In this document: piece by piece, positions 8,421 through 36,363 of the stretch | Layout of the letters: every line of letters begins with the position of its first letter | Position numbering within the stretch: position 1 is the stretch's first letter | DNA from: Chara braunii | Taxonomy: Eukaryota > Plantae > Charophyceae | NCBI GenBank assembly: GCA_003427395.1 | Contig: BFEA01000010.1 | Location: forward strand, 2,894,235-2,958,234 | DNA length: 64,000 nucleotides | Direction: 5' to 3' | Notes under the pieces: generated by a model | The model's database searches: none | What the model was told of the DNA's origin: nothing | The model's input: only the letters and a program-made list of their open reading frames with translations | Made by a program: the position numbers and the translations under genes

Positions 8421-8423
8421 ATT

Positions 8424-8435
8424 TGGTATCGGAGC
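8424..8435 (+). promoter_or_regulatory. primer binding site, tRNA-iMet type
   Basis: TGGTATCGGAGC 3 nt after the LTR end. Confidence 0.9.
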
Positions 8436-12760: not shown

Positions 12761-12836
12761 AATTCTGACTTGTCGGAGGAATAGGAACCGGACTGTTGCT
12801 CCCCAGAATTGCAAGAGCCGGAACCGAAAGGTTCTG

Positions 12837-12868
<32 letters not shown>
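12761..12868 (+). mobile_element. short polyadenylated retroposed insert (SINE or 5'-truncated LINE 3' end)
   Basis: 76 nt plus A32 flanked by the direct repeat GGACTAA (12754-12760, 12869-12875); removal restores pol LRSFLGLTNYY. Confidence 0.9.
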
Positions 12869-12870
<2 letters not shown>

Positions 12871-14141: not shown

Positions 14142-14233
14142 ATGAATCGTCTTTGTCAACAACTTTTGCGAATGTATGTTCGTCCAGATGAATCGTCTCT
14201 GTCAACAACTTTTGCGAATGTATGTCCGTCCAA
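14142..14233 (+). repeat. 46-bp tandem duplication frameshifting the integrase
   Basis: atgaatcgtct..gtatgt.cgtcca at 14142 and 14188. Confidence 0.92.
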
Positions 14234-16829: not shown

Positions 16830-16905
<76 letters not shown>

Positions 16906-17250
16906 CGAGTCGCTCCGCCCTTCCTTCTTCCTCTCTCTCCCTTTCTTCGACTTATACGTAGTCCCCTCTGTCCGTCCTCCCTTGATTTCGGGCAGCGTCG
17001 CCAGCCGACGCCCCTCCTTACCTTAGCTCGAGCCTTCGAACTCCGGGGGTCCGTCGCCTGTCGGAACGCGGAGGTTTGCCCCTCGCTCCTCTTCTGGGGA
17101 GATGGTCGTTCACTTGCTCGTGCACTGTCCAGTGTCCCTTGTGCGCTGTCCAGTGTCCCTTGTGCGCCTCTCTCTCTCAGTCGGCCCAGCCGCTACCTGT
17201 GATCGTTCTTCGGAGCCATACCCCCCCCCCTTCACGACGCGAGTACTTGA

Positions 17251-17287
<37 letters not shown>

Positions 17288-18666
17288 ATGCTCGTTGATG
17301 CGGAGACACGAACGCCTTCTCCCACCTGCTCGCGGTTTCACTCCCTATCTCACGCGATGGTGGCCCTAGCGTTCTGCCCCTCCCTCTCTCTCTCCCTCAC
17401 TCTCCCTCTAATACGCTGGCCGAGCTCGTCTGCGGCGCATACGTCCTCGTGCGCCTCTCCCTCTTCCTCGTAGTTTGTTCTCCCGCCTCGCGCGTCGACT
17501 GCCCGTAAGTGAGCACTTTACGCCTTCCTATCTCCCTCCCTCACTCTCTCTAGTGCGCTGATCGCACGCGGCCGCGGCCGCGAGTCCTCGAGCGCCCCGA
17601 ACGCACGCGCGTTCCGTTCGATTTTCTCTCTCCCCCTCCCCCTCTTTTCCCTCTTCCTTATATGCCGGTTGCTTCCCCGAGTTCTCTTCTTCCCGATCCT
17701 CGTCCTCACGTTACGCCCCCGCCTGTCGGCGCTATTCTCCAAATTTCTGAATTTTTCGCTCTTTCCCGCCATATTCTTCTCTTCCCACCTCGCAATCCAT
17801 CGCCTGTCTATTCTAGCCAATAGCAGCTCGTGTCCACTCCTCTCCTTGGATTTCCACCACGCGAGGCCGCGCAGGAAGGACTCGCGATCGCGCGTTCCAG
17901 TTCCCGCCGCTTGCCTCGTCTCCATCGACGGACTCACACACTAACAGCTCCCCCTCTCTTGCGGCTGACAGTTATCAAGAACCCGTCTCGCGCTCTTTCC
18001 CGGGGTAACCGTTTATGCGAAGTCTCCTTCCCCCTTCCCGCGTTCGTATTCTTGTTCTTTCCCACATTCTTCTCCCCCTCCCTCTGTGTGTTATCTCGCC
18101 ATCCCATCGCCAGTTAAGCCTGGCACTTGGTCGGCTTCGCCACCTACCCCCTTTTTCCTCATTATGCAGCCTGCGGCCCGTCCCTATCTGGAGCAACGAA
18201 GTCGATAACCCTTCTCCCTGAGGCGCCCTCCGCCAACCCAACATCCTTGGATTTCACACCTTTCGTATATGGCGGTCCCTCAACCGGCTCAATTGCCTCC
18301 CCGCGTTCCGTCAGGACAACCCCGCAGCTGCATGCAGCCAAAATAAGTGGGCCCATCTCCGCACCCAGTTTCTTCTCGGTTTCCCCCTTGATCTTATGTC
18401 GGCCGCCTTCCCCCCTATTCTTCTCACGCCACGCCGGACTCCCATATTTTAGTCTGCTTCCGACATCGTTTACGACCTTGCGTTGATTGTCTTCATCACT
18501 GCTTGCTTAACGTTAGTGGAAGTCAAAAGGAACCCCAAGGTTTCCCCAAACCCCTCAGGTCTCACGCATCCACGCATCCAGTCATGCAAGAACAAAAGAA
18601 ACATGTCCAAAAAAAAATTGAGTTTAGCAAGAAGAGCGTAATCGGCTGGTAGGCAGCCGCCCGACA
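15629..18666 (-). repeat. element B 3' LTR (~3.0 kb including a gap)
   Basis: direct repeat of 32343-35922 (about 94-95% identical in a 110-nt sample); contains ~65-bp tandem units and (CT)n tracts. Confidence 0.95.
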
Positions 18667-19002: not shown

Positions 19003-19284
19003 CTACACTCGTCTCCGCCTCCTCATTCTCTTCTCTCGCCTCTCTCTCTTTCGTTTCTTCTCTTCCCTCTCGCGTTTGGATCTTAAGGTCTTCCTCGAGG
19101 TGCTTCTTCTTTCTCTCAACCTGCGTTTTCCTAGCTGGTCGGTATCACTGTCGTCGTCCCTTGGCCTCTTCTTTTTCCTAGGCGTCTTGGGCAGGGAAGG
19201 TATCCGAACCTTATACCTCTTCTTGAGCGGTCGTGAAGAGGCCCCTAGTTCCGACGTCTCTCTTTTTTCGTAGGCAATGGTCAT
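19003..19284 (-). CDS. small, highly basic (Arg/Lys) ORF downstream of integrase; function unknown
   Basis: 93-aa ORF PKTPRKKKRPR...KREREEKKRKRERREKRMRRRRRV; may be a detached integrase tail. Confidence 0.35.
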   Translation of the reverse strand: MTIAYEKRETSELGASSRPLKKRYKVRIPSLPKTPRKKKRPRDDDSDTDQLGKRRLRERRSTSRKTLRSKREREEKKRKRERREKRMRRRRRV

Positions 19285-19329
19285 CTCTATGTCAACTGCC
19301 TCCTTCCCTTTTCTTTTCGGTTCTTCTCT

Positions 19330-22300
19330 AGGGGTCCCCCTCGATCGGAAAGTTTGAGGCGAGCCCCCGTGATAGGGTCTCGTAACCTGGTCCCGTCTAA
19401 TTCGACAGGGAGATACGCTCCCCTATCCAATCTTTTTAGGACGGTACGGCCCCATCCACCGGTTGGCTAGCTTCCGGCTCCACGTCTTCTCTAGCGACGA
19501 GTCGTACATCAGGACGAGGTCACTAGTCCCTATCGGCTTTTGTCGGACCCGCAAATTCTTGTCCCACCTTTCCTTTCCTTTCGTCCTCTCTTTCTCGATG
19601 TTTCTCCCCGCCTCGGTAAGTCCGGAGTCTAGGTTTTCGGCTATTTGTCGTATCCTCGCCTCTAACAACTCCCCCCTTGTCATGTTGGTCTTCCACGTGA
19701 CACTTGTCGACGTGGAATTTGATGGGCAGGGGGCAGTGCCTACCGAACCAAAGGGCGTAGGGGGGATACCCCGTACTTGATTTGACTGTGATGTTGTCGG
19801 CCCAAACCGCATAGCGCAAATACTTTGGCCATTGTTCCTCACGCCCCTTGCACCACTTGGCTAAGGCATCTACAAGCGTCTGGTGACCTCTTTCGACTGG
19901 GGCGTTGCTTTGGGGGTGATATGCGGTTGTGTAGGCCGCCCTAATCCCTGCCTTTTCTAATATCGCTTTGACCTTTTGGCTTGAGAACTCGGACCCCCTT
20001 ATCCATGACTATCTTCCCGACACACCCGTACCTGGCGATGTATTCTAGGAGAAAGTCACTCACCTCCTCGGCCGTCTTCCTCTTAATGGCCTTAGCTTCT
20101 ACGAATCCAGCGAGGTCATCGCGGGCATTGATTATGTACCAAAGTCCACCGACTCCCTTGGGCATGGTCACCAAGTCCACATGGATCTTCTCGCCCGGCA
20201 CTGTGGGGAGCGATGGAACTAGGGGTTCATTATAGCGAACAATCGCCCTCTTTTGGCAAGCTTCACAGGTCGAACAATATTTTTCCACCTCCCCGTATTG
20301 TCCGTCCCACCAGTAAAGTCGTAGAACCTTATCAAACGTCCCTTTTACCCCCCGGTGACCGCCGACGACCCCATCGTGTAATTCTTCTATGACTGCCTTC
20401 TTTTCTTCCGGGTCGCAAAGGACCCTCATGGGAATTGCGAACTTCGTGGGCCTCTTAAAGAGGTGGCCTCCTCGTAAGGATTACCCGAGTGCCTCCCTTT
20501 TGACTACTTCGGTGCCTTCTTCCCGACCCGCCAGGTATAATCCTATATCTCGATATTTCCCGTTGTGAAGGTTAGCGAGGACCATCCTAGGGCCTTCGCC
20601 TTCTCCTCGGATGGTCACCGCTACTTGCGCTTTGTTAGCGGCGACTTGGATCATCTCGGCCTTGGACATTGCTAGCCTAGCTTCCTCTAATCGGGGATAA
20701 TCCTCTTCTCTGATTGGGAATCGGGACAACCCGTCGGCGACCTGATTTTTGGCCCCAGAGATCCTCTTGACTCTAAAATAGTAGAGCCTAATGTGGATCA
20801 TCCACCTAGCGATAGTCGGGTCGGTTAGCGAGAAGTCCTTTTGAAGGACAGCTGCCACCGCGGTTGGGTCCACTCTTAGGAGGAACCGCCTCCCGTAGAT
20901 GTAGTGGCGGAAGGTCTTTAGGCAGTGCAACACCCCTAGCACCTCTTTCTTGAATTGGTTGTAGTTCCTCTCGGCGGGATTTAAGGCTCGACTCTCAAAA
21001 CGCAGGGGTCTTTCTTTCCCGTCTCCATCCCTTTGCGACTGAAGCCCCCCTATGGAGTATGGCCCCGCATCTATAGATACTATAAACAGGCGGTTCTCCT
21101 CGTCCTCGAAGAACAGAACGCCTAGGACTTGCCCCCCCTCTCGGAATTCGTCCTTAAGGGTTTCCATGGCCGCGGCCTGCTCTTCTCCCCAGACCCATCC
21201 TTCAACTTTCCTAAGCAGCCGCCTTAGTGGCTCCGCCTTCTCGTTGTAGCCTTCTATAAAGATCCTCCAGTAGCCTACCACCCCTAAAAACTGCCTAACC
21301 TCCGTGATGGACTTTAGCGACGACGGCCAGGTCATCAATTTTTCTATTTTTTCAGGATCGGGCCTCCGTCCATCCTTGTCACAGATGAAGCCCAATATCT
21401 TGATTGACGATACTCCCCATCGACTCTTCGCTCCACTTACCGTGATGGACTTTACCGGCGACGACCAGGTCATCAATTTTTCGAATTTCTCGGGATCGGG
21501 CCTCCGCCCATCCTTGTCGCATATGAAGCCCAATATCTTGATTGACGATAATCGCCAGTGACTCTTCGTTCCACTTACAGTAAGGTTGGCGTCATCTAAT
21601 TTCGTGAGGACCTCCCTTACATCTACCATGTGATCCACCACAAACTTCCTTACTCCGGGGAAGACCTCCATCTCATCTTTTTGGACTGACCCTTTTATCG
21701 GGAAGTCGTCAAGGAAGACCTCTACCTTATCCGATATGAATTCCTTGAGGACTGCGATCATGGCTCTTTGGAATACCACCACCCTGTTTGTCCATCCCAT
21801 AGGCACTACCATCATTTGAACCAGCCCTAGAGGCGTGTGCATCGCTGTCATGTGTCTATCACATTAGTCTAAGGGGATTTCGTCATAGCCCGAGAAGAAG
21901 TCGCAGATCGAGTAAATCGAGCGACCCGCCGATCCTTCTGCGAGTAAATCCGCCTCAGGTATAGACCCCACATCTCATATGGTGACTGCATTGGTCTTTT
22001 GGAGATTTTGGATCCACCTCAATTTGTTGCTATCCCCTTTCCTCAGAAAGAACCATTTGTTGGAATAGACACTCTCACAAGGCTCCGCGACAAACGTCCT
22101 TATCTTCTCTTTGATGAAGGCCACTATCTCTTCCTTCTCTTTTTGCACATACTTCCACGGTGGTCTATCTTTCCAAGGAACGTGAGGGACCGTATGGATC
22201 CAGGCGGGCTTAGCGTACCTTGGGTCTATCCTTTCTCTTTCCGAATCATCGAAGGCTATGGCCTTATCGCAATCCCTTAGGGTCATAGCCACATATCCCT

Positions 22301-23773
22301 TCTCTTGTTTCGTTAGGTTTCCATCCCCTATGTTCATTTTTGCTAGCCTATCAGCTGTAATTCTTTGCCCTTCGGTCTCCTTCCGCTTCCGGATAATATC
22401 GGTTATCTCCTCCTCCGATATCGAAGCTTCCCCCATTCTATCCCGACTGACCGCGGCGGGTTTCACTTTTTCCGCTACGGTTTTATGCTTCTTACCTCTG
22501 CCAGCTAGAGGGATTCCCCGCAAAAAGACAGCCTTATGCACCCGCCGAATTCCTCGTCTTCATCCTCCTTTTCATATCCGACCCCATCGATGATTATCCC
22601 GTCGCCAATCTCCTCGACTTCTACCCGTTCCCCTGGGGGTTCCTTCTCGGCGAAGGGGGACTCTTCTAGTCAGACCCGACAAACTCGTGACTGGGCTTCT
22701 CTCCTCCTTGGCACACTCGTGCGATTCCTCTCATCTTGAGCATCCACCGTCCTTAGGACCACTCGAATTTCATCCAGATTTTGGATCGAGAGGGTCTGGC
22801 TTCCGTCTGGAAGATCGACCGTAGTAGCATGGACCACGCTTAGCCAAGTTCGCCCGAGGATCAACTCGGAGGAACATTCTTTCACTGAGAATATTGGGAT
22901 GGTCGCTTCTACGCCAACGACCTCGATCATAGGGTTGTGACACACCCCTTCCACTGGTTGGAGCTTGTTGTCCGCAACTACCATGGACATCGACACTCCT
23001 CTATCGACTTCTAACCCTAACTCCCTTGCAATGAAGTCTCGACATACGGTAGATTCGAACCCATTGTCCACTAGGGCTCTCATTTTTTTTCCACTCACCA
23101 CGGCTTGGAGTTGGCCGCTCCCTAATACATAGAATTTCTTGACCTCTTCCTCCGAGAAGAAACTCATCGGCAGTTCTTCCATCGCGATCCGAGAGGACTG
23201 CACCTCTTCCTTGGCGGGTCCATCCCCAGGAACGGTTGACCCTTCTGCGAGCAGAATTCTCACCTTCTTAGTGATGCACAGGAGCTCGTCTCTAGCACTC
23301 TTGCTTGCTGCTAAGTATTCAAGAAGAGTGCATTGCATTGGCTGCATTAGAGTCCTCCGTAGGGGTGCAATCGTATCTATCTCGTCCAAGGTGCACTTCA
23401 TCTTGAACTTCTTTGGTCCTTTCTTTCTAGGTGATTTAGGCGACGTGGGCTCTTCCCCGTTCCTCTCCTCCACGACTTTGGCGTCGACCATCGGTTGGTC
23501 GTCGTCACCACTCCTCCCTCCATCTACCGTTGCAATTTCCTTGCTCTTAGACGGCCCGGCCCCAACTTGGGTCCTTACTCTTAGGCACGGTCCCTCTTCT
23601 TCAGGCTTGGTCTCAACGAATTTGATGCTAGACACCTGCGGCTCCCTTATGGACACGCCTCCTGGAGCCTCCGTCATTTGGACGCGGGAGGAGCTGGAGG
23701 TCCCACCGACCTCAGGCTTCTTTCCCAGTCTTGCCTCTCGTAGGGCAACCCTTTTGTCCACATTTATATTCAT
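19330..23773 (-). pseudogene. element B pol: aspartic protease, RT, RNase H, integrase; stops and frameshifts
   Basis: ALVDNG..LILGRTW (protease); LRWIQNLQKTNAVTI, PMGWTN, FLDDF (RT); IDAGPYSIGG, VADGLSR (RH); HDGVVGGHRG..CEACQ, IHVDLV (INT); no chromodomain seen. Confidence 0.93.
21303..21578 (-). repeat. in-frame 138-bp (46-aa) tandem duplication in RT
   Basis: two copies of TVSGxKSxWxxSSIKILGFICDKDGRRPDPEKxEKLMTW; 15 differences in 138 nt by manual count. Confidence 0.95.
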
Positions 23774-23779
23774 CGAGGG

Positions 23780-25547
23780 TTAGACGGAGACCGCTTCTCC
23801 ATCATCCCCCCATACGACCCACTTATTTTCATTTAACTTCACCACCCCTAACCTTAGGGCCTCTGTGAGGTGAGGACACTCCCGCTTCACATGATTATCT
23901 TCATTGCAATAGACACACCCGCTTTGAGGCGGCGGATTGTTAAAGCGAGGGGCCACTTGAGGTGCCACCCCCATAGTCGTTGAAGGACCGGGTGGCTGCG
24001 AAGCTCTAGCCTGACTTACCTCGGGACGAGTCCCCGTGGCTCTAGGTTGCGGAGGGTCTCCCCACCTCCCATCTCTAGCATCTTTCCAATGGGAATTCCC
24101 CCAGTCAGATCCTCGATTGCCCCCAACTTCCCGGTCATTTCTCCAATTCCCTTGGTTTCCGGACTCGTTCCGCCAACTTGCGGGCCCCCCTCCCCAGTGT
24201 TGGCAGGGAGGCCCAGGTGGCGGCCTATCGTTCCCGCGAGGACCATCGTTCCGTTGGATACGCATGCTTCGGAGTGCCATGTTCAGACTCTCCTTCATAT
24301 ACTCCCGTACGTCGACTCCCCCCCCCCCGTAAAGACCACTTCAGCGACTCTTTCGAAATTTGTCGAGTCTCTAGGGGCCCTCTCGAGAACCTCTTTCCTC
24401 TTCTCTTCCGGCAGGTGCAGCATAAACATTACATACCTATCCACTTCCGAGAGCATCCCCCTATCCACCAAAGCTTGCGACAAGCGTTTTAACCATTAAG
24501 CGAAGGCTACCAGGCTTTCTTGTTCTCCTCTTGAGACCGGCGCAACCCTTCTAACGTAGGGATCAAGTCGTCGCAGGCGAAGGTCCGCAACAAGCTGCTC
24601 TTGAAGGTCTTCCACCTCCCATCCACCGGGTATATTGCCCTAATGGCCTGGTTTAGTTCAAGATCCGAATGTTGTATAAAATGGTTGATCCATTCCTTCT
24701 TCGATAATTTCTTCCGGAAGGCGTAGCTTTCCCATTTCTCGACGAACCCGATCACGTCCCTCCCGTTAAAGTAGAGCGTCTCAAGTCCTAGGTTCACATC
24801 GTAGTAGGGGACTCGTCGGTCGTCATACCGACAGAAGTAGGGACCTTCCGTCGGCCCAACTATCACTGGGTCATAGGGTTTGTACCAAGCGGGGTCTAGA
24901 TCCTCCATCCATGGCCGAGCCCTCGGAGGTCCCCACAGTTCCTCCTCACGGCGGCCTCTCTCACACGGGTCCTTTTGCTCCCAGCGTTTAGGTTCTTGGA
25001 CTCTAAACCCTCTCCAGGCATCTCCAAGTCCTCTCGCACTCCTCCTCGTCATCTCTTTCGGCGCCCATGCAGGGTCTATCTCTCGCCCGACCCACCTCCG
25101 TGGTCCTCCCAACGTCTCCACAGGTCGCTCCTCCCCCAACTCTCTCCTTCTTAAGCTCCCTTTTTCACCCCTCTTGGGCGCCCAACTCCCCAACCTTTCA
25201 CGCGAAAAATCTTGGCCTTCTCCGGTCCTTTCTCCCATATCTACTCGATCTGCCCATCGGGTCTCGACAGGGAAGCCCGTAGAGGTTTCCATTGCCCTTT
25301 CTCTAGCGGATACCCGCGGCTCGACCTCCCTATTCGGACACACCTCGATGCTCGCTCTCTCTCCTACAGCAGATTTTCTCTCGCCGAGAGAAGGTTCCAG
25401 GCTTCTCTCAGCCCTACCTATCTCCTCCATTCTTTCGGTTGTCTCCTCGGTCACCTCACTTAATCTAGCCCCTAAAACGACATCTTTCTCGATCTGTCCC
25501 ATGGTCTCAGGTGGTCTAGAAATCCCGGGCTCCACTTCACTCTCCAT
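23780..25547 (-). pseudogene. element B gag (capsid plus CCHC knuckle), frameshifted
   Basis: FNGRDVIGFVEKWESY..WKTFKSSLL capsid-like block; CVYCNEDNHVKREC knuckle; directly upstream of and in frame with the protease ORF. Confidence 0.85.
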
Positions 25548-25565
25548 GCACCCTATTGCTTCTTT

Positions 25566-26771
25566 TTAGTTGCTTCCCTCACTAGTGTCACTCCCTTGCC
25601 CTTCCGCTTCGCCTCTTTCTTTTGAGCTCTCTTCCCCCTCACTTGATTCTTGTTCCTCACTATCACCCTCGGATTCTTCACTAGTCATGGTCCACCAAGA
25701 GTCGCGTACTCGTTTCTCTTTGCAAGCAGCTAACGCGAGGTTGGCAATCTCTAGATCGAAAATGCCCCTAATCAATTCTTGAGAACACCTTTTAATCAGA
25801 GCTCTATCCACCTCTTCGGCTTGCCCTTTAAACAGAGGCTTAATGAACTCCCCTACTAATGCCCACCACTCGAAGTCCGTATGCTCCCACGACTCCCAAC
25901 ACTGGGTGAATAACTCGTGTCCCTTCTCCTCTCCTAGGGGAAATTTTTCAATGACTTGTCCTCTATGCAGGACCTTCCTCACGGCTGCGTCGTCGGGGTA
26001 GAGCAACCGGTACGCCCAAGCCGGAATTTCCCAGGTCCGGTCGTGAGCCGCCCTAGGGACCTCTAGCCTCCCTCGGTACTCAACCCTATCTACCACGCGT
26101 CCTTCGGCGGCACCCCCTCTCAACCCCCTAAGCCGGTCTAGGGCTTTTCGGGCGATACCTAGAGGGTCCTTTCCTTCTGCTAACTCGGTCGCAAAGAACT
26201 GCCTATCGTCGTGAGACAATTTCAGCCCTTCACGTGCGGGTACCTCCCTCAAAAACTATCGAAAAACGAACTATCGTTTCCTGCCCGTAGATCTCGAAGA
26301 ACTCCGTAATAACCTCTCCTACCTCCCTATTCTTGGGGAGGGTTACTCTATACCTAGCCCCCGACTTCCAATCCCTCTCCAAGGTCCCGACAGGGCTTCC
26401 CCTGTCGTATCTCCCGTCCTATCCCAGAAACGGGCCTCAACAAGGTGCAACCTGGCTTTGAAGGGAGACCCGAGCCACCTAGAGTCCTCAAACTTTGTCT
26501 CGACCTCAAGCAAGGGTTCTCTCCAAGTCCTAGAGAACCGTACTTCCCCCGCCTTACTAACAAAAACCGAAAACTTCGCTTACGCGCTCCAGGATCTCCT
26601 CTTCCACAAAGCTAACCGTCGGATCTCGACAAGGAACTCCTTAGCTCGAGCCTCCTGGTTCTCTCCGAGACCCGGGCTAAGTTCCGCCCCCCTTTCTACC
26701 TCGACCTCGGGGCCGTCATCCCGCGTCTCTAATTCCCAGGCTATTGAGTCAGAGGCGAAGGTAGCTCTCAT
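25566..26771 (-). pseudogene. accessory paralog P5 (unknown domain plus acidic tail); 2 stops and 1 frameshift
   Basis: ATG 26771; LKLSHDDRQFFATELAEGKDPLGIARKALDRL aligns with P4 ILLSKEGFLEVVRSLKLGEDPLLYARAVQDRL; EVPRA and LFTQC motifs. Confidence 0.7.
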
Positions 26772-26773
26772 GC

Positions 26774-27710
26774 CTATCTTCCTCCCGAGAGCAGCTCCTC
26801 CTTCAATTCGTCGAAGATCTCAACTGTGGTGGTCTCAAGTTATTTGATCTTGCACAAAGATCTTGGCCTTGCCCTTCTCTCCTCTTCCCAGCAAAGGGTC
26901 AGGATTCTATACACTTCTGCCCTCACCCTCTCTAGTCCCACTAGTTCTCTGGTGTCAGGCTCCCTCATGCCTCAGGTTCCTTTGCCAACACGCAATTGCG
27001 ATCCGAATTAGATCCGAGGGGTCCCATCCTTCTAACCCCGCCTCACAGATCTCCCCCAAGTACCTCCACGAAATGGTCGATGCCCTTACGTGTTGGCCCC
27101 AGCCTTCAAAGGCGTAGCCCAGGTCCTCTAGTGACGACCCATTGTCTTGGTACGGATTTCGAAGGCACCACGATAACAGGGCGTGCAGGTCTGATCCCGT
27201 GAACCGAAATTGGTTCAAGATCAAGATCCTACGCTCTATTGCCCTCTTGACCGCTTCGGAGGGGTAGACCCACTCAAGGATGAAACGAGGGACTCCTACG
27301 GGGTCACTGGCGACAAATAGCGGTACCTCTTCCCAACCCTCGTACGTCACTTGATATATCCTTTGGTACCTCTCTCTAGCACTCACCTCCTCCACTAGTC
27401 TCTCTAGACGGTCTTGTACCGCTCGCGCGTATAAGAGCGGGTCTTCCCCCAACTTCAAACTCCGGACTACCTCTAGGAAACCCTCCTTCGAAAGGAGTAT
27501 CTTGGCTTCCCCAATCACCAACCCCTCCTCGCTACTCACTGACAACCGAATGAACGCCTTCCCTCGGCGGATTTCGGACACTTCCCTTCGAATGGTTCTC
27601 GTCGGACCCTCCAGGCTCGTCTTTGGTAATGTGATGTGGACANCCNCCCCCGCCTCTTCTACAGGCTCTATCGAGGCCCAAAGAGTTCCGAAAATTCCCC
27701 TTATCATCAC
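26774..27710 (-). pseudogene. accessory paralog P4 (unknown domain plus helical tail); 1 frameshift and 1 stop
   Basis: 251-aa ORF 26955-27710; tail in another frame ends LLSGGR-TAG 2 nt before the P5 ATG. Confidence 0.7.
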
Positions 27711-27737
27711 CTCGTCCGAGCCTCGTACCCCCTCCGG

Positions 27738-28468
27738 TTAGTCTTGCTCTTCCCCAAAGGGGCGGGCATATGGGACATCAACAACGTGAGCTCTCACCCC
27801 CTCAAACTCCCTTAACCTTTCGAATATAGGTGCTAGCTCTCTCCTAGGGGGAGCCCCAGCGTCGACACACCGAGTGTAGAGCCAAAATAGCCCTTGCGTC
27901 CGCACCCCGAATTGTTGCGGGCTTCGGAGTATTTCTAACACTCTCCCTTCCGGATCCTGTAGGAGCGATCGCACCAGGAATTCGGGCAAGGCAGCGTGGA
28001 GCACCCTGGAAGCTCGAGGGACTTCGCCTGGCTCGGCGAAGGACACCTGCGTCCACGACTTGAAAGTCCCTTCTTCGTAACTGCTTAGTGCCAGATCGTT
28101 CGCTACCTTCCTTGCGAGCTCAAGGTACTCCGTATGAGTCTCTAAACCGGTCACTAAACCCTTCCAAATTTCGGTCCACGAACCTTCGTCGAGGAATACC
28201 GTAGCCTGAAACTCTAGGAACCGTCCACGGTGAGGCGGACCTCCCCTCTGCACCCCTTCCTTCCAGGTGAGTCGACGAGCTCGAACCCACGCGTAAGCAC
28301 CTTCTCTGATGTTCTCTCCTTCTCAACACTCGACCAGTAGGGAGTTACGCGAGGGTGGTTGCACTGGGAGCCAGTGCTTGTTATATCACCAGGGATCAAG
28401 AACTGGCCTCTGTCACCGACCTCTATCGTTTTTACCACTCCGTTTTCACTGAGCGCAAACCTTACCAT
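27738..28468 (-). pseudogene. accessory paralog P3 (unknown domain); 1 frameshift near 28325
   Basis: MVRFALSENG..YWSSVEK / GENIREGAYAWV..QATVFLDEGSWTE..GEVPRAS..GLFWLYTRCVD. Confidence 0.75.
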
Positions 28469-29132
28469 CTACCGACGTTGTTTTGAAGACCCACTCGCGG
28501 TACTTCTCAGGTGAGAAGGCGACAGACTTTTCCAGAGACCCAAGTCTCCTAAAAATACCCCAGAGTTTCCTTCGCTAAGGGATTCCCTGGTCGATACAAT
28601 GAGTGTACAGTACCCACAGAGCCCTAAATGGTAGGCCTAAACTTCTTCCTCCCTCCAAGAGTCTTACTACCCTATCCTCGTCTGTGCTCAAGAACACAAA
28701 GCCCGGGGCCCTTATGATTACCAGATAACTCGCCCTCGGGAGCTCACCTGCCCGAGCGAACCTTTCCACCTCTATCGCCACAAAGCTAAATCCCCTCCGG
28801 GTCCTAATTATCCACCTTCTCCTCACTGCTCTTACTTCTTGGATCAATAGGTCCAGCCCACCCCCTTGGCCTAAGACCAGGGGTACTGCAACCTTTGCCC
28901 AAGCGCCCGGCTCGACGAAGATTATCACAGTGACTTTGAGATGCACCTCAGTCGCTCCATCCCTTACTTCTTCCGACTCTATCCACACGAAATTCCCGCC
29001 GACCGTGATTTCTCCACCTTCCAACCTCCTCCAATCGGGGACTGCCCCGTTGCTCGGAACCAAGCTATGAACCCCTCGCTCGTCTAAGGGGGATTCGACA
29101 AACTTACCGAGGTCCTTGTCAAAAAGAATCAT
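28446..29132 (-). pseudogene. accessory paralog P2 (unknown domain); 1 internal stop at 28575
   Basis: VTVIIFVEPGAWAK..GELPRAS..LGLPFRALWVLYTHCID; frame stays open past the TAG and stays similar to P3 (RRKLWGIFRRL vs RRELAPIFERL). Confidence 0.75.
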
Positions 29133-29137
29133 TCATG

Positions 29138-29879
29138 CTAACCTACCTTTTGGCGGACTCCAAATACACTTCGATAAGGGTAGCCTCTTCCGCCTTCACG
29201 GTCTCGCTCCGATTCCAGAGAGATCCTTTCTCGGATCCGATCGGCCCTGACTCTGTATGGCACTGGGTTGTCCACACAATAGGAGTAGAACCAATGAAGC
29301 GAACGAAAGGACAACCCTCTCCTTTTCTCCCGCCTTATAGACCACGACCTTCTCGTACTCGGCCCTCTCTCCACACACTCTCCTGAAGACGTAAGCCGGA
29401 AATATGGCTTCGACGCAACCCGTAGCATGAGGGTATTCCTCGTCCCGAGCACAAGTCACTCGCAAACGGAACGGCAGGTTGTGCCGAAGGCGTACCTCCT
29501 CGAAGATCTGTTTAAGAATAGGCCCCACGCGTACCTCCCAATGGTCCGCCCGATACCACCCCAATGCCCAGTGGGTGACGTACTCTACCCAGGCCTCCTG
29601 ACTCAAGTAGATCGTGCCCTCAGCACGAACCGCCGCTCGTCGAGCCTTTCCCCCGTTCGCAGGTCTACTCTTGGTCCACTGATCTCCTTCCCAAATATCT
29701 ACAGCAAATCGCGCCCAGAGAAAAAATCCCTTTTCGAGTTCTAGGCCTCTCTCGCGTCCGACTAAATATCTCTCCGTACAATGGTCTAAAGGGACGCTGA
29801 AGCACTCCCTCTCCTTGTCGAGGTCGGCCTTTTCGATTTGGACCCTACCGTCGCCAGTCGCCTCTACAATCCTGACCAT
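29138..29879 (-). pseudogene. accessory paralog P1 (unknown domain); 1 frameshift
   Basis: MVRIVEATGDG..KGFFLWA..EGTIYLSQEAWVE..EYPHATG, then in the second frame GLSFRSLHWFYSYCVD. Confidence 0.75.
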
Positions 29880-30573
29880 GGACCACCTCCTCGATGATTC
29901 CTACTAACACCTTCCAACCGTCCGACCCGTCGAGATAGGCCTCTGGCATAGTCGGGGTGGGTCGCTCTCCTTGTCGGAAGGTCCGGTAACCCAATGTGTA
30001 GAAGTACCGGATCCCGTAATTTCCTAAAAGTTCCCTTTCTAGCTGAGCGTAGCTAACAACCTCTTCCCAGCTACTGAGGAAGTCTTCCCCTCGATCCGAA
30101 CCTTCCTCTACATAGAGCGCTATATCAAAATCCCCGGTCCATAGATAAAAGTTGTAACACCATACGTCTATATCCCCACAACTACCCACGCTAATGCCCG
30201 TCGGCTCAGACTCCAAAACTCCTAGGCTCCCCACTATCTCCTCTATGATCGCGACCAATACTCTCCACCCGTCCGACCCGTAGAGATAGGCGTCCGGAAT
30301 CACTGGCGTAGGTCGACCGCCCCTAGGATAAGTCCGGTACCCGAGAGAGTAGAAGTATCGAAACCCGTATCCTCGCAGCTCCCCTCTTTCCATACGAGAG
30401 TGGTCGGCCGCCTCCTCCCATCCGCGAAGGAAATTTTCCCCCTGATCTTGCCCTTCCTCTACATAGATGGCAATGTCGAAATCTCCCGTCCACAGACGAA
30501 AGGTGTAGCACCACACGTCGACTCCACCGTGACTACTCACACTAATCCCTTCCGAGACCGCCTCTAAGCTCAT
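29845..30573 (-). CDS. accessory ORF0, intact 242-aa protein made of two ~117-aa repeats; function unknown
   Basis: DVWCYxFxLWTGDFDIAxYVEEG..YGxRYFYxLGYRT..PTPxxPxAYLxGSDGWxVLVxIIEExV occurs twice with mostly conservative substitutions. Confidence 0.8.
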   Translation of the reverse strand: MSLEAVSEGISVSSHGGVDVWCYTFRLWTGDFDIAIYVEEGQDQGENFLRGWEEAADHSRMERGELRGYGFRYFYSLGYRTYPRGGRPTPVIPDAYLYGSDGWRVLVAIIEEIVGSLGVLESEPTGISVGSCGDIDVWCYNFYLWTGDFDIALYVEEGSDRGEDFLSSWEEVVSYAQLERELLGNYGIRYFYTLGYRTFRQGERPTPTMPEAYLDGSDGWKVLVGIIEEVVHGQDCRGDWRR

Positions 30574-32320
30574 ACATCCTACTCAAAGAAGGTCCTTTTT
30601 GTCACCCTAACTTTAGGTCACTCGAGAGACCAGCCCTACCCTGCAAGGAGAAGGTGCCTGTGAGCTCAGCAGGATCAAATGGACCAGAGAAGGAACGCCG
30701 TCTCACTCGGCTACCTTCTTGTCCTCCCCTGCTGAGAGGTCCTCCCACTTCCATGTATAGAAACTAGCCGCGAACACAGGTTATCCCCGAAGAGGGGTGC
30801 CAACCCCCTCTCCGTAGTTGGACCGTAGTCACACACTCGTGCCCTACGTCCCCCACCGAACCGACCCCTAGTCCTAAGTTAGCCTATCCGGCACCACGCC
30901 CCTACTCGGCCCCCCTCGAGCGTGGAATTACCCGGGTTCCAGGACTTTATCCGCCTATCGATCAATGATCACTAGCCTGTCAACTCCCTCCCATTCTTCT
31001 CCTTATATCATGAACTCTTCTCACTTCGTTCCCTTCTTCCTATTCGCCTCCGTCGAACTCTTTTCTCTCTCGGAATCGGAGAATTTAATCGAGGTCTTCA
31101 CACAAAAGGGTGGGGAATTAGAACTTTAGAAAGAGAGTCTCTCAAGTTTGGCCACTTTAAATACGTACCTTGTAGTCTTCGACCTTTTTAGAATTCGTTC
31201 TCGTAGTCCTAGTAGTCCCCGAGATCCGAGTCCGAGAAATCGGCTAGACACCGGTCCACCCAAGAGTCGGCCTCCGATTCGTCGTCCAAGGTGCCCCACA
31301 TATCTCTCCTCTCTTCTTCTCGAATTAGCCCCCTACCCCCTCCGTTCTCAACGGCGGCTGGAGTTCCCTCGACCCTTTGCCCCGGAACCCGAAGCACTAC
31401 CCTTCTCGCTCCCGAGTCCCGAACAGCACCCGTTTGAGAATTTCGCTCCCTCGAGGGAGTCGTGTCCCGCGCGAGTCCCGTCCACAATCCGCGTGGGTCG
31501 AGAACAGAGAACCCTGCCCCCTCTCGAGAAGCCTGTTCGCCCGCGGGAATTTCGTCCCGTGCGGGTGACGTCCACAACCCGTGTGGGTCGAGGATATTTG
31601 GCAAGCCTCTCTCCCTTTGGACCAACCCTCTTGGATCCCAAACAGATGGCGTCCAAGGACCCTCTCGAACCGCCCTTTCCTCTCTTCCCCAAGCGTTCAC
31701 TCTCTCTTCCCCACGTGCGGACCCACTCACACAATTTCCCCGCACGACTCTTCTTCCCCCCCTTAGATTGTTTTTCACCCTCATTCAAGCCCCACAAGCA
31801 AACTGTTTCACCCTCTTAATTTGAGAATTTTGTTTTTTTTTTGAAATAAACACACATAAAAATTATCACACTACCCAGCAAGAGTCTGACCTGGATTTTT
31901 GGAAGGAGCAAGTGGGGCCGAAGTCGCAAGTGGGGCCGGCGCGGACCTGCAAAACCAAGAGAACCGAACACCCCAAGCCCCTCGCACCCAAGCAACCCAG
32001 TAACCCCTTCCACACGGAAAACAAGACCTCAGACAAACACACGCCCCGACGCTGCCTGAAGCCACCCAAAAGGCACCGGGGACCTTGGAATGCCAAAAAA
32101 AAAGGTCGATGCCGAAATACCGTCGAAATAATCGATGCCGAAAACGAAACGGCCGTAGAAACTGATGCCGATATAATGCCGTCGAAACATTTGACGCCTA
32201 AACGAACTTGTCGAAGAAACTGATGCCGATACCAAAAAAAATGCACCCTCCACCACCTGTCAGGCTCGTCCTCCCTCACACCGCGGTCCTTGAGCCAACC
32301 GAGACCGCGGGAGAATGCTC

Positions 32321-32339
32321 ATCCCCGGCAACGGCGCCA
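32321..32339 (-). promoter_or_regulatory. primer binding site complementary to plant tRNA-Asp
   Basis: Minus strand TGGCGCCGTTGCCGGGGAT, 3 nt from the 5' LTR; same PBS type as Athila-like elements. Confidence 0.9.
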
Positions 32340-32342
32340 CTT

Positions 32343-33060
32343 TGTCAGCAAGCTCCCTCCTTCGATCACCACCAGTTGCTGCTGGTCCGACTGCTGGTAG
32401 TTCGGGGGGGCGCTCCCTTTTAGCGACGCCTCCCGTGACGGCAGCTGCCTGTCTTCCTTCTGGTCTCTGGCAGCTTTCGGCCCTCTGGTTGTCTCCAAGG
32501 GAGCCCGTTCTCGGAGCGGTACTTGCTAAAAAACAGCTTTTCCCAGTGCACCCTGACAGAACTGCGATTCGCAAAAGAAGGAGACCCCGACCGAACTCGG
32601 TTTTCCGAAGAGACTGACAGAACTACGACCTTGCAAAAGAAAGTGGACCTGGACCGAAACCAGTTTTCCCAAGTGGGCTCAACAGAACTGCGAGTTCGCA
32701 AGAGAAGCAGGCCCAGACCAAGCTCAGTTTTCCCAAATGGACCGTAAGAGAACAACAGAACCGTGGTTTTTGCAAAAGAAGTGTACCCCGACCGGAAACA
32801 ATTTTTTTAAAATGGACCCTAAGAGAACAACAGAACTACGATTTCGCGAAAGAAGTGGACCGAACCGAAATCGGTTTTTCCAAATGGACCCGGAAGAGAA
32901 CAACAAAACTTAGATTTCATAAAAGCAGTAAGGGTCGCCAACAGCGTTTCGATCGGGACTCAGAAGTTCGTTGCGAACGTAACGCTTCCCCCCCACCGAG
33001 CCAGAAGCCCCGATATGCCTCCCTTCCCCGCCGTGAAGCCGATATCTTTCTCTCTCTCTC

Positions 33061-33139
<79 letters not shown>

Positions 33140-33499
33140 NNNNNNNNNNNNNNNNNNNNNNNNNNNNNNNNNNNNNNNNNNNNNNNNNNNNNNNNNNNNN
33201 NNNNNNNNNNNNNNNNNNNNNNNNNNNNNNNNNNNNNNNNNNNNNNNNNNNNNNNNNNNNNNNNNNNNNNNNNNNNNNNNNNNNNNNNNNNNNNNNNNNN
33301 NNNNNNNNNNNNNNNNNNNNNNNNNNNNNNNNNNNNNNNNNNNNNNNNNNNNNNNNNNNNNNNNNNNNNNNNNNNNNNNNNNNNNNNNNNNNNNNNNNNN
33401 NNNNNNNNNNNNNNNNNNNNNNNNNNNNNNNNNNNNNNNNNNNNNNNNNNNNNNNNNNNNNNNNNNNNNNNNNNNNNNNNNNNNNNNNNNNNNNNNNNN

Positions 33500-33583
<84 letters not shown>

Positions 33584-35922
33584 AGTCGCTCCGCCCTTCC
33601 TTCTTCCTCTCTCTCCCTTTCTTCGACTTATACCTAGTCCCCTCCGTCCGTCCTCCCTTGATTTCGGGCGGGGTCGCCAGCCGGCGCCCCTCCTTACCTG
33701 AGCTCGATCCTTCGAACTCCGGGGGTCCGTCGTCTGTCGGGACGCGGAGGTCTGCCCCTCGCTCCTCTTCTGGGGAGATGGTCGTTCACTTGCTGGTGCG
33801 CTGTCCAATGTCCCTTGTGCGCCTCTCTCTCTCAGTCGGCCCAGCCGCTACCTGCGATCGTTCTCCGGAGCCATACCCCCCCCCTTCACGACGCGAGTAC
33901 TCGATTCCTCTCTCTCTCTACATGCTCGTTGATGGCGGACGCGGAGACACGAACGCCTTCTCCCACCTGCTCGCGGTTTCACTCCCTATCTGCGCGATGG
34001 TGGCCCTAGCGTTCTGCCCCTCCCTCTCTCTCTCCCTCACTCTCCCTCTAATACACTGGCCAAGCTCGTCCACGGCGCGTAGGTCCTCGTGTGCCTCTCC
34101 CTCTTGCTCGTAGTTTGTTCTCCCGCCTCGTGCGTCGACCGCCCGTCAGTGAGCACTTTACGCCTTCCTATCTCCCTCGCTCACTCTCTCTAGTGCGCTG
34201 ATCGCACGCGTCTGCGGCCGCGAGTCCTCGAGCGCCCCGAACGCACGCGCGTTCCGTAGGATTTTTTCTCCCCCCCTCCCCCTCTTTTCCCTCTTCCTTA
34301 TATACCGGTTGCTTCCCCGAGTTCTCTCCTTCCCGATCCTCGTCCTCGCGTTACGCCCAGGCCTGTCGGCGCTATTCTACAAATTTCTGAATTTTTCGCT
34401 CTTTCCTGCCATATTCTTCTCTTCCCACCTCGCAATCCATCGCCTGTCTATTCTAGCCAATAGCAGTGCGTCTCCACTCCTCTCCTCGGATTTCCACCCC
34501 ACAAGGCCGCGCAGGAAGGACTCGCGATCGCGCGTCCCAGTTCCCGCCGCTTGCCCCGTCTCCGTCGGCGGACTCACACACTAACAGCTCCCCCTCTCTC
34601 GCGGCTGACAGTTATCATGAACCCGTCTCGCGCTCTTTCTTGGGGTAACCCTTTATTCGAAGTCTCCTTCCCCCCTCCCACGTTCGTATTCTTGTTTTCC
34701 CACATTCTTCTCCCCCTCCCTCTGTGTGTTATCTCGCCATCCCATCGCCAGTTAAGCCTGACACTTGGTCGGCTTCGCCACCTATCCCCCCTTTCCTCAT
34801 TATGCAGCCTGCTGTCGTCCCTAAATCTTTCTCCATTCGTCAAGGCGGCCTGGCCGATCGTTCTCTATCCCCTCCAACTCATCCTTTGGCCGATCCTTCC
34901 TTACGTTCGCTTCACCCAATGGCGACGCGAAGCTGCCCGCCTCTCGGATTCAGCTTCACCCAAGCGCTCAACCACCTCGCTCGTGGCCCACCTCTTCAGC
35001 CCAGCTTCAGCGTTCGTAACAGTTGACGAGCGCGCTCCTCCTCTCAACCGTCGTCTCTCCGTTTGCCGGGTCGATCTTCTCTTCCTCCCTCAGCCGTCAA
35101 TTCGCGCAGTCCCCTCCTTTCCTCATTCATTTTCCCTCCATACAAGGTTCTCAGCCGTTGAAGCTAGTATTCGACTAGCTCGATCATTCAGTCGGCCACC
35201 CCTCCCAACTCTGTCTTGCACATACACCCCGAGTCGTCGGGTCACATCGGTTACCCCGCTGCCTGCTCCAGAAGTTCTTTGACGGATCAAACCTACCCAC
35301 CGAGCGACGATGTTTGGGTCGGGGCTGGTCACGCAGCACTGTTTGGGCCAGCCCTAGTGTACCAAAGCCGACCCTAGAGTGGCAGCCATAACGACTTGTG
35401 TACAGTCAAGGGTGACTGCCTCGAGGCCTGCGGCCCGTCCCTATCTGGCGCAGCGAAGTCGATCACCCTTCTCCTTGAGGCGCCCTCCGCCAACCCAGCA
35501 TCCTTGGATTTCACACCTTTCGTATGTGGCGGTCCCTCGGCCGGCTCAATTGCCTCCCCACGTTCCGTCAGGACGACCCCGCAGCTGCGTGCAGCCAAAA
35601 TAAGCAGCCCATCTCCGCACCCAATTTCTTCTCGGTTTCCCCCTTGATCTTATGTCGGCCGCCTTCACCCCTATTCTTCTCGCGCCACGTCGGACTCCCA
35701 GATTTTAGTCTTTTTCTGGCACCGCTTACGACCTTGCGTTGATTGCCTTCATCCCTGCTTGCTTAACATTAGTGGAAGTCAAACGGAACCCCAAGGTTTC
35801 CCCAAACCCCTCAGGTCTCACGCATCAACGCATCCAGTCATGCAAAAACAAAAGGAACATGTCCAAAAAAAAATTGAGTTTAGCAAGAAGTGTGCGATCG
35901 GCTGGTAGGCAGCCGCCCGACA
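32343..35922 (-). repeat. element B 5' LTR (~3.6 kb including a gap)
   Basis: repeat of 15629-18666 plus 619 extra nt (34813-35431). Confidence 0.95.
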
Positions 35923-35926
35923 GCGC

Positions 35927-36363
35927 TGCTACTGGTCTACATTGTTGACGTGGCATTGTCCACGCTGTCTACATGAAGTGATTGGTTGCGAGGAGGAAGA
36001 TCGGGATTTGTGGTTGAGGGAGAACGAGTACTCACCTGGGTTTGATGTCAATACTGGAATCTGCAATGTCTTCATGGTCTTCATGATATTGAGTGCCACG
36101 TGGCACTTCCGTGTGTGATCAGGAATATACGTATTATCATTGTCGATGTGAAGAGGGGAGAAGCCCGGAGAAGGAGAGGGTCAACAGGGATTATTGTCTG
36201 ATTCTTCATCTTCTCCTTTGTTTGTTCCCCCTCCCCTTTCTTCTATTGATGATAATGAGATACGGTTTGATATATTTCTTCACGAATTGGAGACTTTGAT
36301 GCATATACCGACTCTACAAGTATTGGACGACTTCGGACTATCTGTAAGACCGGGTTCATTACA
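35927..36363 (+). repeat. element A 3' LTR, right fragment
   Basis: matches ~8025-8420 and ends gggttcattACA. Confidence 0.93.

Follow-up and report, generated by a model that had tools for sequence, protein, structure and literature searches.

The window, a 64,000-nt stretch of Chara braunii DNA, contains an LTR retrotransposon, element B, with a row of additional open reading frames ahead of gag. Its features, read from 5′ to 3′ on the minus strand, are as follows.

15629–35922, minus strand: element B, Ty3/gypsy, LTR- and TSD-bounded, decayed
32343–35922, minus strand: 5′ LTR, from blastn between both LTR regions; ends TGTCGG...CTGACA
32322–32339, minus strand: PBS-like 18-mer starting TGG, 3 nt past the 5′ LTR end, from sequence reading
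30574–32321, minus strand: untranslated leader, 1.76 kb, between the PBS-like site (32339–32322) and the ORF0 start at 30573
29845–30573, minus strand: ORF0, 242 aa; sister P0018 begins at the same Met
29196–29879, minus strand: P1, 227 aa, P-module; ATG in a different frame, 35 nt ahead of the ORF0 stop
28575–29132, minus strand: P2, 185 aa, P-module; ATG 63 nt past the P1 stop
27738–28468, minus strand: P3, ~243 aa, P-module; starts MVRF in another frame
26955–27707, minus strand: P4, 250 aa, P-module; ATG 30 nt past the P3 stop
26343–26771, minus strand: P4b, an additional seventh ORF, 158 aa long in sister P0130
25566–26418, minus strand: P5, ~283 aa, P-module; acidic Ser/Glu tail; overlaps the P4b end
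23780–25547, minus strand: gag; ATG 18 nt past the P5 stop; frameshift-broken
19003–23779, minus strand: pol (protease, RT, RNase H, integrase), from Pfam; sisters 75–82% identical
15629–18666, minus strand: 3′ LTR, from blastn between both LTR regions

A gypsy element of about 20.3 kb bounded by LTRs and a TSD had been described by a sequence-only reading of this DNA, and this description holds. The element measures 20,294 bp, its LTRs are direct repeats with TG..CA ends and about 90–92% identity across aligned blocks, and its TSD is 4 bp long with one mismatch. It is nested within the 3′ LTR of a neighbouring element, element A, and the empty site is visible in the uninterrupted 5′ LTR of element A. 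The 5′ LTR of element B contains a masked (GA)n/N stretch (33140–33499), and ~600 bp of it (34823–35426) are missing from the 3′ LTR. No tRNA genes were found within the 64-kb window. Pfam places aspartic protease, RT, RNase H and integrase in this order on the minus strand, and nine of the RT matches listed are 26–37% identical. Pol carries frameshifts, stops and a tandem duplication within RT. Gag combines a disordered N-terminal part rich in E and R with a capsid-like part and with a CCHC knuckle that is readable in the translation of 23783–24340. Element B is thus a decayed Ty3/gypsy (Metaviridae) LTR retrotransposon.

Between leader and gag lie seven sense ORFs (ORF0, P1, P2, P3, P4, P4b and P5) of 143–283 aa, and the spacers from ORF0 through gag are −35, 63, 106, 30 and 183 nt, an overlap of ~75–120 nt, and 18 nt. 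Six sense ORFs fully tiling the PBS–gag interval had been claimed; their places and strand stand, but the count rises to seven with P4b, which occupies a presumed 'gap' at 26256–26957, and the tiling applies from 30573 on, with the leader preceding ORF0. The starts of P3 and P5 lie upstream of, and in different frames from, those implied by stop-to-stop ORFs.

Many of these boundaries recur in sister copies. ORF0 is built of two tandem repeats of ~112 aa each (64% identity) and is matched by P0018 at 74% identity across 70 aa. The P2 ATG is immediately preceded by an in-frame stop and its Met is also the start of sisters P0123 and P0132, with P0128 and P0093 spanning P2 at 57–58% identity. P3 has a private frameshift near 28322 in the window, a site across which P0135, which begins at the P3 start, and P0122, which spans P3 and P4 at 70% identity, are both unbroken. 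Neither the P4 stop nor the P4b start ATG has a listed difference, so both are common to most sister contigs. P4b carries a private stop at 26580–26582, with every contig differing at 26581, as well as a private frameshift near 26420; P0130 begins at its start, and P0130 and P0138 end alike. P5 has lost its start codon in the window and has a private frameshift near 26219, and sisters P0003 and P0133 begin MIRY at the P5 start. Its acidic tail is shared by P0125, P0126, P0127 and P0134, whose ends lie within ~2 codons of the P5 stop in the window; the end of P0131 lies ~10 residues beyond this stop.

P1–P5 are paralogues of one orphan domain, to which P4b is unrelated. The relationship was detected by tblastn between P2 and P3 (E 2e-11) and between P4 and P5 (E 3e-5), and P1 reaches E 1.4e-5 with a profile built without it, against 0.0091 for the best among 5000 shuffles. 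P1 has no counterpart among the 21 sister protein records. The accessory module that had been proposed is supported and, P1 excepted, conserved in sisters, but its five P-module ORFs are paralogous and do not represent five different functions.

The cassette also recurs beyond this copy. Thousands of diverged DNA contigs cover the P4–P5 part in the same way as gag and pol, and pieces of ORF0, P2, P3, P4, P4b or P5 occur in 21 sister protein records; 11 of these also include same-family gag or pol. A one-off insertion of the cassette can be dismissed. All named sister records are from Chara braunii. This sister support is at the protein level and comes mostly from automatic gene models, which are visibly chimeric. 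A phmmer search of P2–P5 against 1.84 billion proteins returned 15 matches, all 50–68% identical, the named ones again from Chara braunii, and no cassette relatives outside these, a negative that is weak because TE proteins often go unannotated. Pfam, PDB, Atlas, two AlphaFold models and Foldseek yielded nothing on the function or fold of the P proteins, and no clear transmembrane segment was detected in the seven cassette ORFs.

Across 1797 codons the coding frame contains 18 stops, while the two remaining frames hold 95 and 107 and shuffling gives 86.5±8.9 (300 shuffles, minimum 57). Over 24510–29900, 17 of the 18 in-frame stops fall at or between ORF ends, and the only one inside an ORF is private to this copy. 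Thus the decay noted earlier is real as far as the private frameshifts and stop are concerned, but the stops are not scattered. Sister start Mets coincide with the starts of ORF0, P2, P3, P4b and P5, and a Met occupies the shared start column in 11 of 17 module rows of alignment A4. Each paralogue keeps 53–77% identity between diverged copies without internal stops, and the cassette is conserved as well as gag, or better (P3–P4 70% vs gag 61% within P0122; P5 72% vs gag-protease 72% within P0124). With starts and ends shared in this way, the evidence supports the view that the cassette ORFs behave as conserved coding units.

Because P1 to gag lie in one frame in the window, our initial idea was a single ORF, a long Gag extension broken by decay; it was rejected, since stops at ORF ends and Mets at ORF starts are seen again in sisters. 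Such an N-terminally extended Gag would be a polyprotein of ~1,800 aa continuous with gag, its stops being decay. P1, P2, P3, P4, P4b, P5 and the first 352 gag codons do share one frame with few stops (18 vs 95–107 elsewhere), and one Chara model, P0137 (3090 aa), joins four modules in a single predicted protein with normal Met content. We nevertheless give this explanation little credence: the stops cluster at module ends, the ends of P5, P4 and P4b reappear in sister copies, as do the start Mets of the modules, only some 4 of the 7 junctions stay in frame once the private P3 and P5 frameshifts are considered, which is near chance, and a single ORF offers no reason for a purge of ATG from three frames. 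An array of duplicated junk without present function, carried as a passenger in a family mobilised in trans, would fit the facts that all copies seen are broken or known solely as fragments and that neither a homologue of known function nor a confident fold was found. This deserves hardly any weight, given that each paralogue keeps 53–77% identity between diverged copies without internal stops and is conserved like gag or more, and given the selection visible at synonymous sites that is described below.

That selection concerns ATG itself. In the one decayed copy from which the nucleotide statistics were drawn, the cassette has 23 ATG against 89.6±8.4 expected (z −7.9), whereas gag (37 vs 29.8) and pol (82 vs 80.2) are normal. 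In P1–P5, none of the 64 trinucleotides falls as low as ATG relative to a dinucleotide-based expectation (15 vs 41.6, ratio 0.36), while CAT stands at 1.32 and ATG in gag-pol at 1.2. Out-of-frame ATGs in P1–P5 number 8 vs 22.8±3.5, a value as low being reached in 0 of 1000 synonymous-codon shuffles, compared with 21 vs 19.2 in gag and 39 vs 38.9 in pol. The depletion is specific to one strand and to ATG, affects all three frames throughout the 4.3 kb that separate the beginning of P1 from the gag start, and ends at gag; selection is visible at synonymous sites of the cassette. The leader is also ATG-poor (9 vs 31.2±5.5 in shuffles; 1764 nt, 30574–32337), and it shows no unusual folding (z −0.33 and −0.39). 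ORF0 shows no depletion, with 9 ATG (z −1.4) and 6 vs 7.1 out of frame. At the protein level, internal Met accounts for 6 residues out of 2880 (0.21%) over 15 cassette segments from sisters and for 122 of 5369 (2.27%) over six gag-pol segments. The fold can accommodate Met: in Chara families that are more distant, this domain has 34 Met among 766 residues (4.4%). Four non-start ATGs lie in 26690–27170, two of them private to the window (94–98% of contig depth differs).

The near-absence of ATG across the cassette suggests that its genes are all read from one RNA by leaky scanning, and the earlier 'operon-like' reading thereby gains a concrete mechanism. We put the probability at roughly 60% that the seven ORFs and gag are translated successively from one long RNA in this way. 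Scanning 40S subunits would bypass each weak start with some probability, and a share of ribosomes would reach every cistron and finally gag-pol. None of the seven starts, as read in this decayed copy, has the optimal context (purine at −3 plus G at +4), and five have T at −3. Ribosomes might get past ORF0 thanks to its weak start and its short internal ORFs; alternatively, re-initiation at the 35-nt overlap might bring them to P1. Several observations speak against leaky scanning. Because ORF0 is not depleted, simple cap-based scanning would encounter eight internal ATGs there; the non-start ATGs at 26968 and 26719 lack any listed difference, which makes them common to most sister contigs; the gag start context is only moderate; and the AUG-poor tract of 4.3 kb, or 6.8 kb including the leader, is far beyond the 0.9 kb documented for rice tungro bacilliform virus (RTBV).

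Two other routes of expression were weighed against leaky scanning. Spliced subgenomic mRNAs could serve to express the accessory ORFs, a route taken by complex retroviruses and by CERV of the C. elegans element Cer1, which is made from spliced RNA (PMC10309623); the ATG depletion would then have another cause. Sister models P0003, P0002, P0018 and P0093 join different cassette exons to window position ~22511, just before RT. However, these junctions are automatic predictions on decayed copies that skip gag and protease, no RNA joint was present among the matches listed, and the loss of ATG in all frames, ending at the gag start, is left unexplained; we regard splicing as unlikely. The 445 RNA reads on the region are mostly <90% alike and on both strands. 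Termination followed by re-initiation after each long ORF, in the style of cauliflower mosaic virus, would suit the short spacers, the overlaps of ORF0/P1 (35 nt) and P4b/P5 (~75–120 nt), and the absence of depletion in ORF0. In cauliflower mosaic virus this requires a viral transactivator (PMC5902531), which is not recognisable in element B by Pfam, and re-initiation does not require ATG-free ORFs, making it a distinctly improbable general route.

What the proteins do can be addressed only by guesses of low confidence. The P proteins would be soluble, mostly acidic, ~20–30 kDa in size, and would adopt an orphan fold. That five paralogues diverged long ago and are each retained in sisters suggests accessory factors with distinct partners. 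Antagonism of host silencing or defence is the likeliest guess, though a tentative one, and particle-associated helpers like badnaviral P1/P2 would come next as a more doubtful proposal.

Overall, the observation made in the sequence-only reading is confirmed and its interpretation supported. A literature search spanning few subscription journals found no description of such an architecture, in agreement with its not being already catalogued. The closest parallels are RTBV and the badnaviruses (Caulimoviridae), which like element B are reverse-transcribing and Ty3/gypsy-related, with consecutive sense ORFs separated by short spacers or overlaps upstream of a capsid-protease-RT gene, few internal AUGs upstream, suboptimal starts and a long leader. 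Badnaviral and RTBV ORFs I and II precede the MP-CP-PR-RT polyprotein on a genome-length RNA; leaky scanning has been shown for RTBV ORFs I–III and proceeds through long AUG-free ORFs, a tract of 0.9 kb in RTBV (PMC5902531). Element B differs in having LTRs, an integrase and a TSD, seven upstream ORFs and not two, and an AUG-poor tract of 4.3 kb; its upstream AUG clearance is a strong depletion and not a total absence, with ORF0 as the exception. Folding detected no shunt-type structured leader, and Pfam no movement-protein or other caulimovirid domain. The upstream proteins are orphans unrelated to caulimovirid ones, and their translation is predicted.

In legume Ogre elements, of the Tat lineage, there is one extra 5′ ORF, ORF1. 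The Tat-lineage elements Retrosat2, RIRE3 and RIRE8 of rice have one orphan ORF0 between the 5′ LTR and gag-pol, which evolves faster than pol (PMC3485330). Tat-lineage elements resemble element B in large size, LTRs of ~3 kb or more and an orphan sense ORF before gag-pol, but element B has seven extra ORFs, five of them paralogous, in place of a single one, and the available portion of the rice study reports no ATG depletion (PMC3485330). No homology to the ORF0/ORF1 of Tat, Ogre or Retrosat2 emerged from phmmer of P2–P5 against 1.84 billion proteins, which is weak evidence with TE proteins often unannotated. Drosophila MDG1-group gypsy elements carry sORF1 and sORF2 upstream of gag (10.1101/2025.03.14.642691); these too are sense ORFs between leader and gag in an env-less gypsy, but they encode one or two tiny membrane proteins, compared with seven ORFs of 143–283 aa in element B.

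Bicistronic mRNAs of green algae are translated by leaky scanning, with a weak ORF1 start context and start codons under-represented before ORF2 (PMC11291117), indicating that the mechanism works in the green lineage. Those cases are nuclear host genes of chlorophytes with two cistrons and short distances, whereas element B is a charophyte retrotransposon with eight cistrons counting gag. Set beside these systems, element B is an LTR element with a seven-ORF cassette in which start codons are depleted over 4.3 kb, a pattern that we infer to be a leaky-scanning signature.

Element B, a gypsy-type element on the minus strand inside the 3′ LTR of the neighboring gypsy element A, is a bounded Ty3/gypsy element of 20,294 bp on the basis of its LTRs, the order of its Pfam domains, the empty target in element A and a flanking duplication. 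Self-comparison gave two direct repeats (15629-18666 and 32343-35922) with TGTCGG...GACA ends that are ~90-92% identical over aligned blocks, and B is thus old enough for ~9% LTR divergence. On the minus strand between the LTRs, Pfam models were matched in the order aspartic protease, RT, two RNase H models and integrase zinc domain, and the translation of 23783-24340 contains a CCHC knuckle. The uninterrupted target is visible in the intact 5′ LTR of element A, and a 4-bp duplication, mismatched at one position, borders B on either side. An 18-mer starting with TGG lies 3 nt past the 5′ LTR; the 64-kb window holds no tRNA gene for PBS comparison.

Several other features of this region were recorded. 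Element A has its internal part at 9251-14243 on the plus strand and LTR pieces at 7401-8700, 15041-15627 and 35954-36363; its LTRs are 85-88% identical, below those of B, which fits the nesting order. The 5′ LTR of B has ~600 bp (34823-35426) that are absent from the 3′ LTR, and both LTRs carry a (GA)n microsatellite, N-masked in part (16255-16506 and 33140-33499). The RT ORF of B contains a tandem duplication of ~46 residues (20675-20815). At least one sister copy is without it, because two DNA runs have one contig apiece that jumps over 139 bases at precisely this place. Two more decayed gypsy elements lie on the minus strand at 52594-57589 and 59526-61746. The former has ORFs at 56456-56986 and 56990-57589 upstream of gag, which encode charged, coiled-coil-like extensions and not the orphan domain described below.

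Features of element B in window positions, listed 5′ to 3′, with the number of sister protein records (21 in total) that have pieces aligned to each cassette ORF
30574-32321, minus strand, leader
29845-30573, minus strand, ORF0, 1 record
29196-29879, minus strand, P1, covered by none of the 21 records
28575-29132, minus strand, P2, 5 records
27738-28468, minus strand, P3, 2 records
26955-27707, minus strand, P4, 1 record
26343-26771, minus strand, P4b, 3 records
25566-26418, minus strand, P5, 13 records
23780-25547, minus strand, gag
19003-23779, minus strand, pol

The sequence-only reading had placed six accessory ORFs on the gag-pol strand, and all six were found where it had put them; the total is seven, however, with P4b in the supposed 700-nt gap between P4 and P5. 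These ORFs are not due to chance, because one frame of 24510-29900 has 18 stops in 1797 codons, whereas the other frames have 95 and 107 and shuffled sequences 86.5±8.9 (n=300). Their GC content by codon position agrees with that of the protease and RT. P1 through the first 352 codons of gag form a single reading frame in the window, and a giant single Gag extension broken by decay was our first reading. It was overturned by the placement of the stops, the start methionines, private frameshifts and recurring ends. The stops, which had been described as scattered, lie at or between ORF ends in 17 of 18 cases, and the one inside an ORF is a different letter in all sister contigs covering the site and is thus private to the window copy. 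The modules have their start Met in one common alignment column (M-V/I-R and variants), which in the window falls 0-10 codons past an in-frame stop. Relative to its sisters the window has private frameshifts in P3 near 28322 and in P5 near 26219. Since these put the true N-terminal parts in other frames, the impression of a single frame is in part a chance product of decay.

Recurring ends were found for three of the ORFs. Four sister records (P0125, P0126, P0127 and P0134) share the acidic tail of P5 and stop within ~2 codons of the window's stop, and a fifth (P0131) ends ~10 residues beyond it. P4b ends alike in two sister ORFs (P0130 and P0138), and a sister ORF from a contig of 1.5 kb gives it a length of 158 aa. 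No difference is listed for the P4 stop or the ATG that starts P4b, so both are common to most of the ~370-390 contigs over 26690-27170. The end of P4b overlaps the start of P5, and the end of ORF0 overlaps the start of P1 by 35 nt.

The sequence-only reading had also named a one-off insertion as a possibility, and this is not what was found. Pieces of the cassette occur in 21 sister records, with 53-77% identity for most aligned pieces, and same-family gag or pol is also present in 11 of these. Being visibly chimeric gene predictions, the long sister records were used solely for local continuity, starts and ends. In contigs from two DNA runs (7007 and 7340), aligned at a threshold of ≥80% likeness with over half of the contigs <90% alike, P4-P5 are covered like gag and pol, and a second contig alignment over 26690-27170 gave cover in 29 of 29 bins. 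When P1-P5 were read through (X at stops), a word-based search found five proteins; with ORF0 as the query it gave no match among proteins of 134-429 aa. An exhaustive phmmer search of P2-P5 against 1,835,955,588 representatives returned 15 matches, all 50-68% identical, and every named organism was Chara braunii (six of six, from 10 looked up). With the RT-RNase H ORF, Chara braunii "hypothetical proteins" matched at 71-73% identity and nine further listed matches at 26-37%, which makes Chara braunii or a near relative the probable origin of the window.

Five of the seven ORFs (P1-P5) are one family with 15-30% mutual identity, because tblastn gave clear pairs (P2 and P3, E 2e-11; P4 and P5, E 3e-5) and a profile started from only P4 and P5 recruits P3 (3.6e-5), then P2-type sequences, then P1. 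Against a P1-free profile, P1 has an E of 1.4e-5; among 5000 shuffles the lowest value was 0.0091. The module profile matched neither P4b nor ORF0, nor any ORF in the window outside element B; ORF0 itself is made of two tandem repeats (64% identity over 112 aa). Further matches to the profile lie in the N-terminal part of two more distant Chara gypsy models (P0060 and P0063, RT ~44% identical to the window) and at four places in P0137.

P0137 (Chara braunii, 3090 aa; 292-363 and 1426-1880) thus has four P modules in one predicted protein of a distant gypsy family, with a normal Met content in the modules (23 of 462 residues), and may be a fused, non-polycistronic form of the array. On the minus strand at ~22511, just before RT, four independent Chara gene models (P0003, P0002, P0018 and P0093) join differing cassette exons (ORF0, P2 and the P5 tail) to one and the same point (KKHKTVAEKVKPA). 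The annotation pipeline may have used a strongly predicted acceptor at this junction, or the junction may hint at genuine subgenomic splicing.

The cassette is strongly depleted in start codons, with 23 ATGs in 5006 nt versus 89.6±8.4 expected (z -7.9), as is the leader, with 9 in 1764 nt versus 31.2±5.5 in shuffles; gag (37 vs. 29.8) and pol (82 vs. 80.2) show no deficit. In 600-nt steps the deficit spans 29922 to 25723 (P1-P5) and stops at gag. Within P1-P5, ATG is the lowest of all 64 trinucleotides (15 vs. 41.6 from a dinucleotide-based expectation), while its reverse complement CAT has a ratio of 1.32 and ATG in gag-pol one of 1.2. When the protein and codon usage of each ORF were held constant in 1000 synonymous-codon shuffles, none was as low as the observed number of out-of-frame ATGs in P1-P5 plus P4b (8 vs. 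22.8±3.5), and no such deficit was seen in gag (21 vs. 19.2), pol (39 vs. 38.9) or ORF0 (6 vs. 7.1). Sister copies agree: internal Met makes up 6 of 2880 residues (0.21%) in 15 cassette segments versus 122 of 5369 (2.27%) in six gag-pol segments. The P fold tolerates Met, because copies of the domain in distant Chara families contain 4.4% (34 of 766 residues). Four non-start ATGs occur in the window at 26690-27170, two of them private to it (94-98% of contig depth differs) and two with no difference listed and therefore common to sister copies. None of the seven start contexts is optimal, and five have T at -3.

In the literature, leaky scanning is recognized by the combination seen here: ATG is avoided in every frame of the sense strand, but not of the antisense strand, as far as the start of gag, the spacers are short and the start contexts weak. 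Because of this match, the cassette is interpreted as a polycistron in which P1, P2, P3, P4, P4b, P5 and gag-pol would each capture part of the scanning ribosomes, and the new evidence points to one specific expression mechanism. Against leaky scanning, ORF0 is without ATG depletion, two extra non-start ATGs are common to sister copies, and the scanning distance is to our knowledge several-fold beyond any documented case. A further weak point is that leader folding energies are ordinary and reveal no special fold, for which reason a shunt-type structured leader was also dropped. By eye, the leader has short direct repeats on the minus strand (~31610-31460 and ~32215-32115), with a ~45-nt unit present twice that begins CTCGACCCAC and several copies of a unit with TCGGCATC. 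The sole RNA evidence, another weak point, is 445 aligned reads of low identity on both strands; run X5 had zero aligned reads.

The function of the cassette proteins was approached by several searches. No Pfam family was matched by ORF0, P1-P5 or the N-terminal part of gag; the PDB sequence search gave no match for ORF0 or for P2-P5 (read through, X at stops); and in the ESM Atlas, ORF0 had no usable match and the P5-type module chance-level ones only (scores ≤0.80). Two AlphaFold2 models of the P5-type module are poor (mean pLDDT 52.5 from an 8-row alignment, 48.3 from a 17-row one), and the three strands, two helices and fourth strand at residues 33-120 of the second (pLDDT 57-76) are not to be relied on. 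Foldseek against BFVD and PDB found nothing at E≤0.001 (TM ≤0.55, short alignments). In composition the proteins are Trp-rich and for the most part acidic to neutral, with a Ser/Glu tail on P5; the search for transmembrane segments gave nothing stronger than windows of borderline hydrophobicity in ORF0, P1 and P2. Since five old paralogues are each retained, distinct partners are suggested. We would guess that the P proteins are host-defence antagonists or, as the second choice, particle helpers.

Taken as a whole, the proposal is that a charophyte gypsy lineage has a caulimovirus-style polycistron of seven accessory cistrons plus gag-pol, with an AUG-purged scan of >4 kb and a P family of tandemly diversified host-defence antagonists; we consider it improbable, at roughly 0.15. 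If true, a quarter of the element is seven extra cistrons, with start codons purged over 4.3 kb, keeping gag reachable. Leaky-scanning polycistronic translation would be extended from pararetroviruses to integrating retroelements, and the multi-ORF strategy of plant pararetroviruses would also be present, or have arisen, among the integrating Metaviridae of streptophytes. The tract would be the longest AUG-purged one known, which would redefine the length over which scanning operates, and it would provide a natural design for multi-gene expression in the plant lineage. The cassette also points to an unknown protein family duplicated five times by a selfish element.

By the textbook, an LTR retrotransposon has two genes, and the exceptions known to us have one or two added ORFs. 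Ogre elements have one orphan 5′ ORF and long LTRs, and B resembles them in both features. Retrosat2, RIRE3 and RIRE8, as described, likewise combine an orphan 5′ ORF with long LTRs, but have one such ORF each where B has seven (PMC3485330), and the extra ORFs of plant elements are placed mostly after pol in reviews (PMC7264820). The earlier suggestion of an undescribed accessory module is supported. No LTR retrotransposon with several AUG-free pre-gag ORFs was found in a search of literature mostly outside the subscription journals and not including the Chara genome paper. B as a caulimovirid is ruled out by its LTRs, integrase and TSD. In rice tungro bacilliform virus, ORF III is described as reached by scanning 900 nt across ORFs I and II, which are without internal AUGs, as are badnavirus ORFs I and II (PMC5902531). 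A weak ORF1 start context and a scarcity of start codons ahead of ORF2 are reported, with confirmation by mutation, for green-algal bicistronic nuclear genes (PMC11291117). In its mode of working the cassette of element B would resemble the tungro and badnavirus polycistron.
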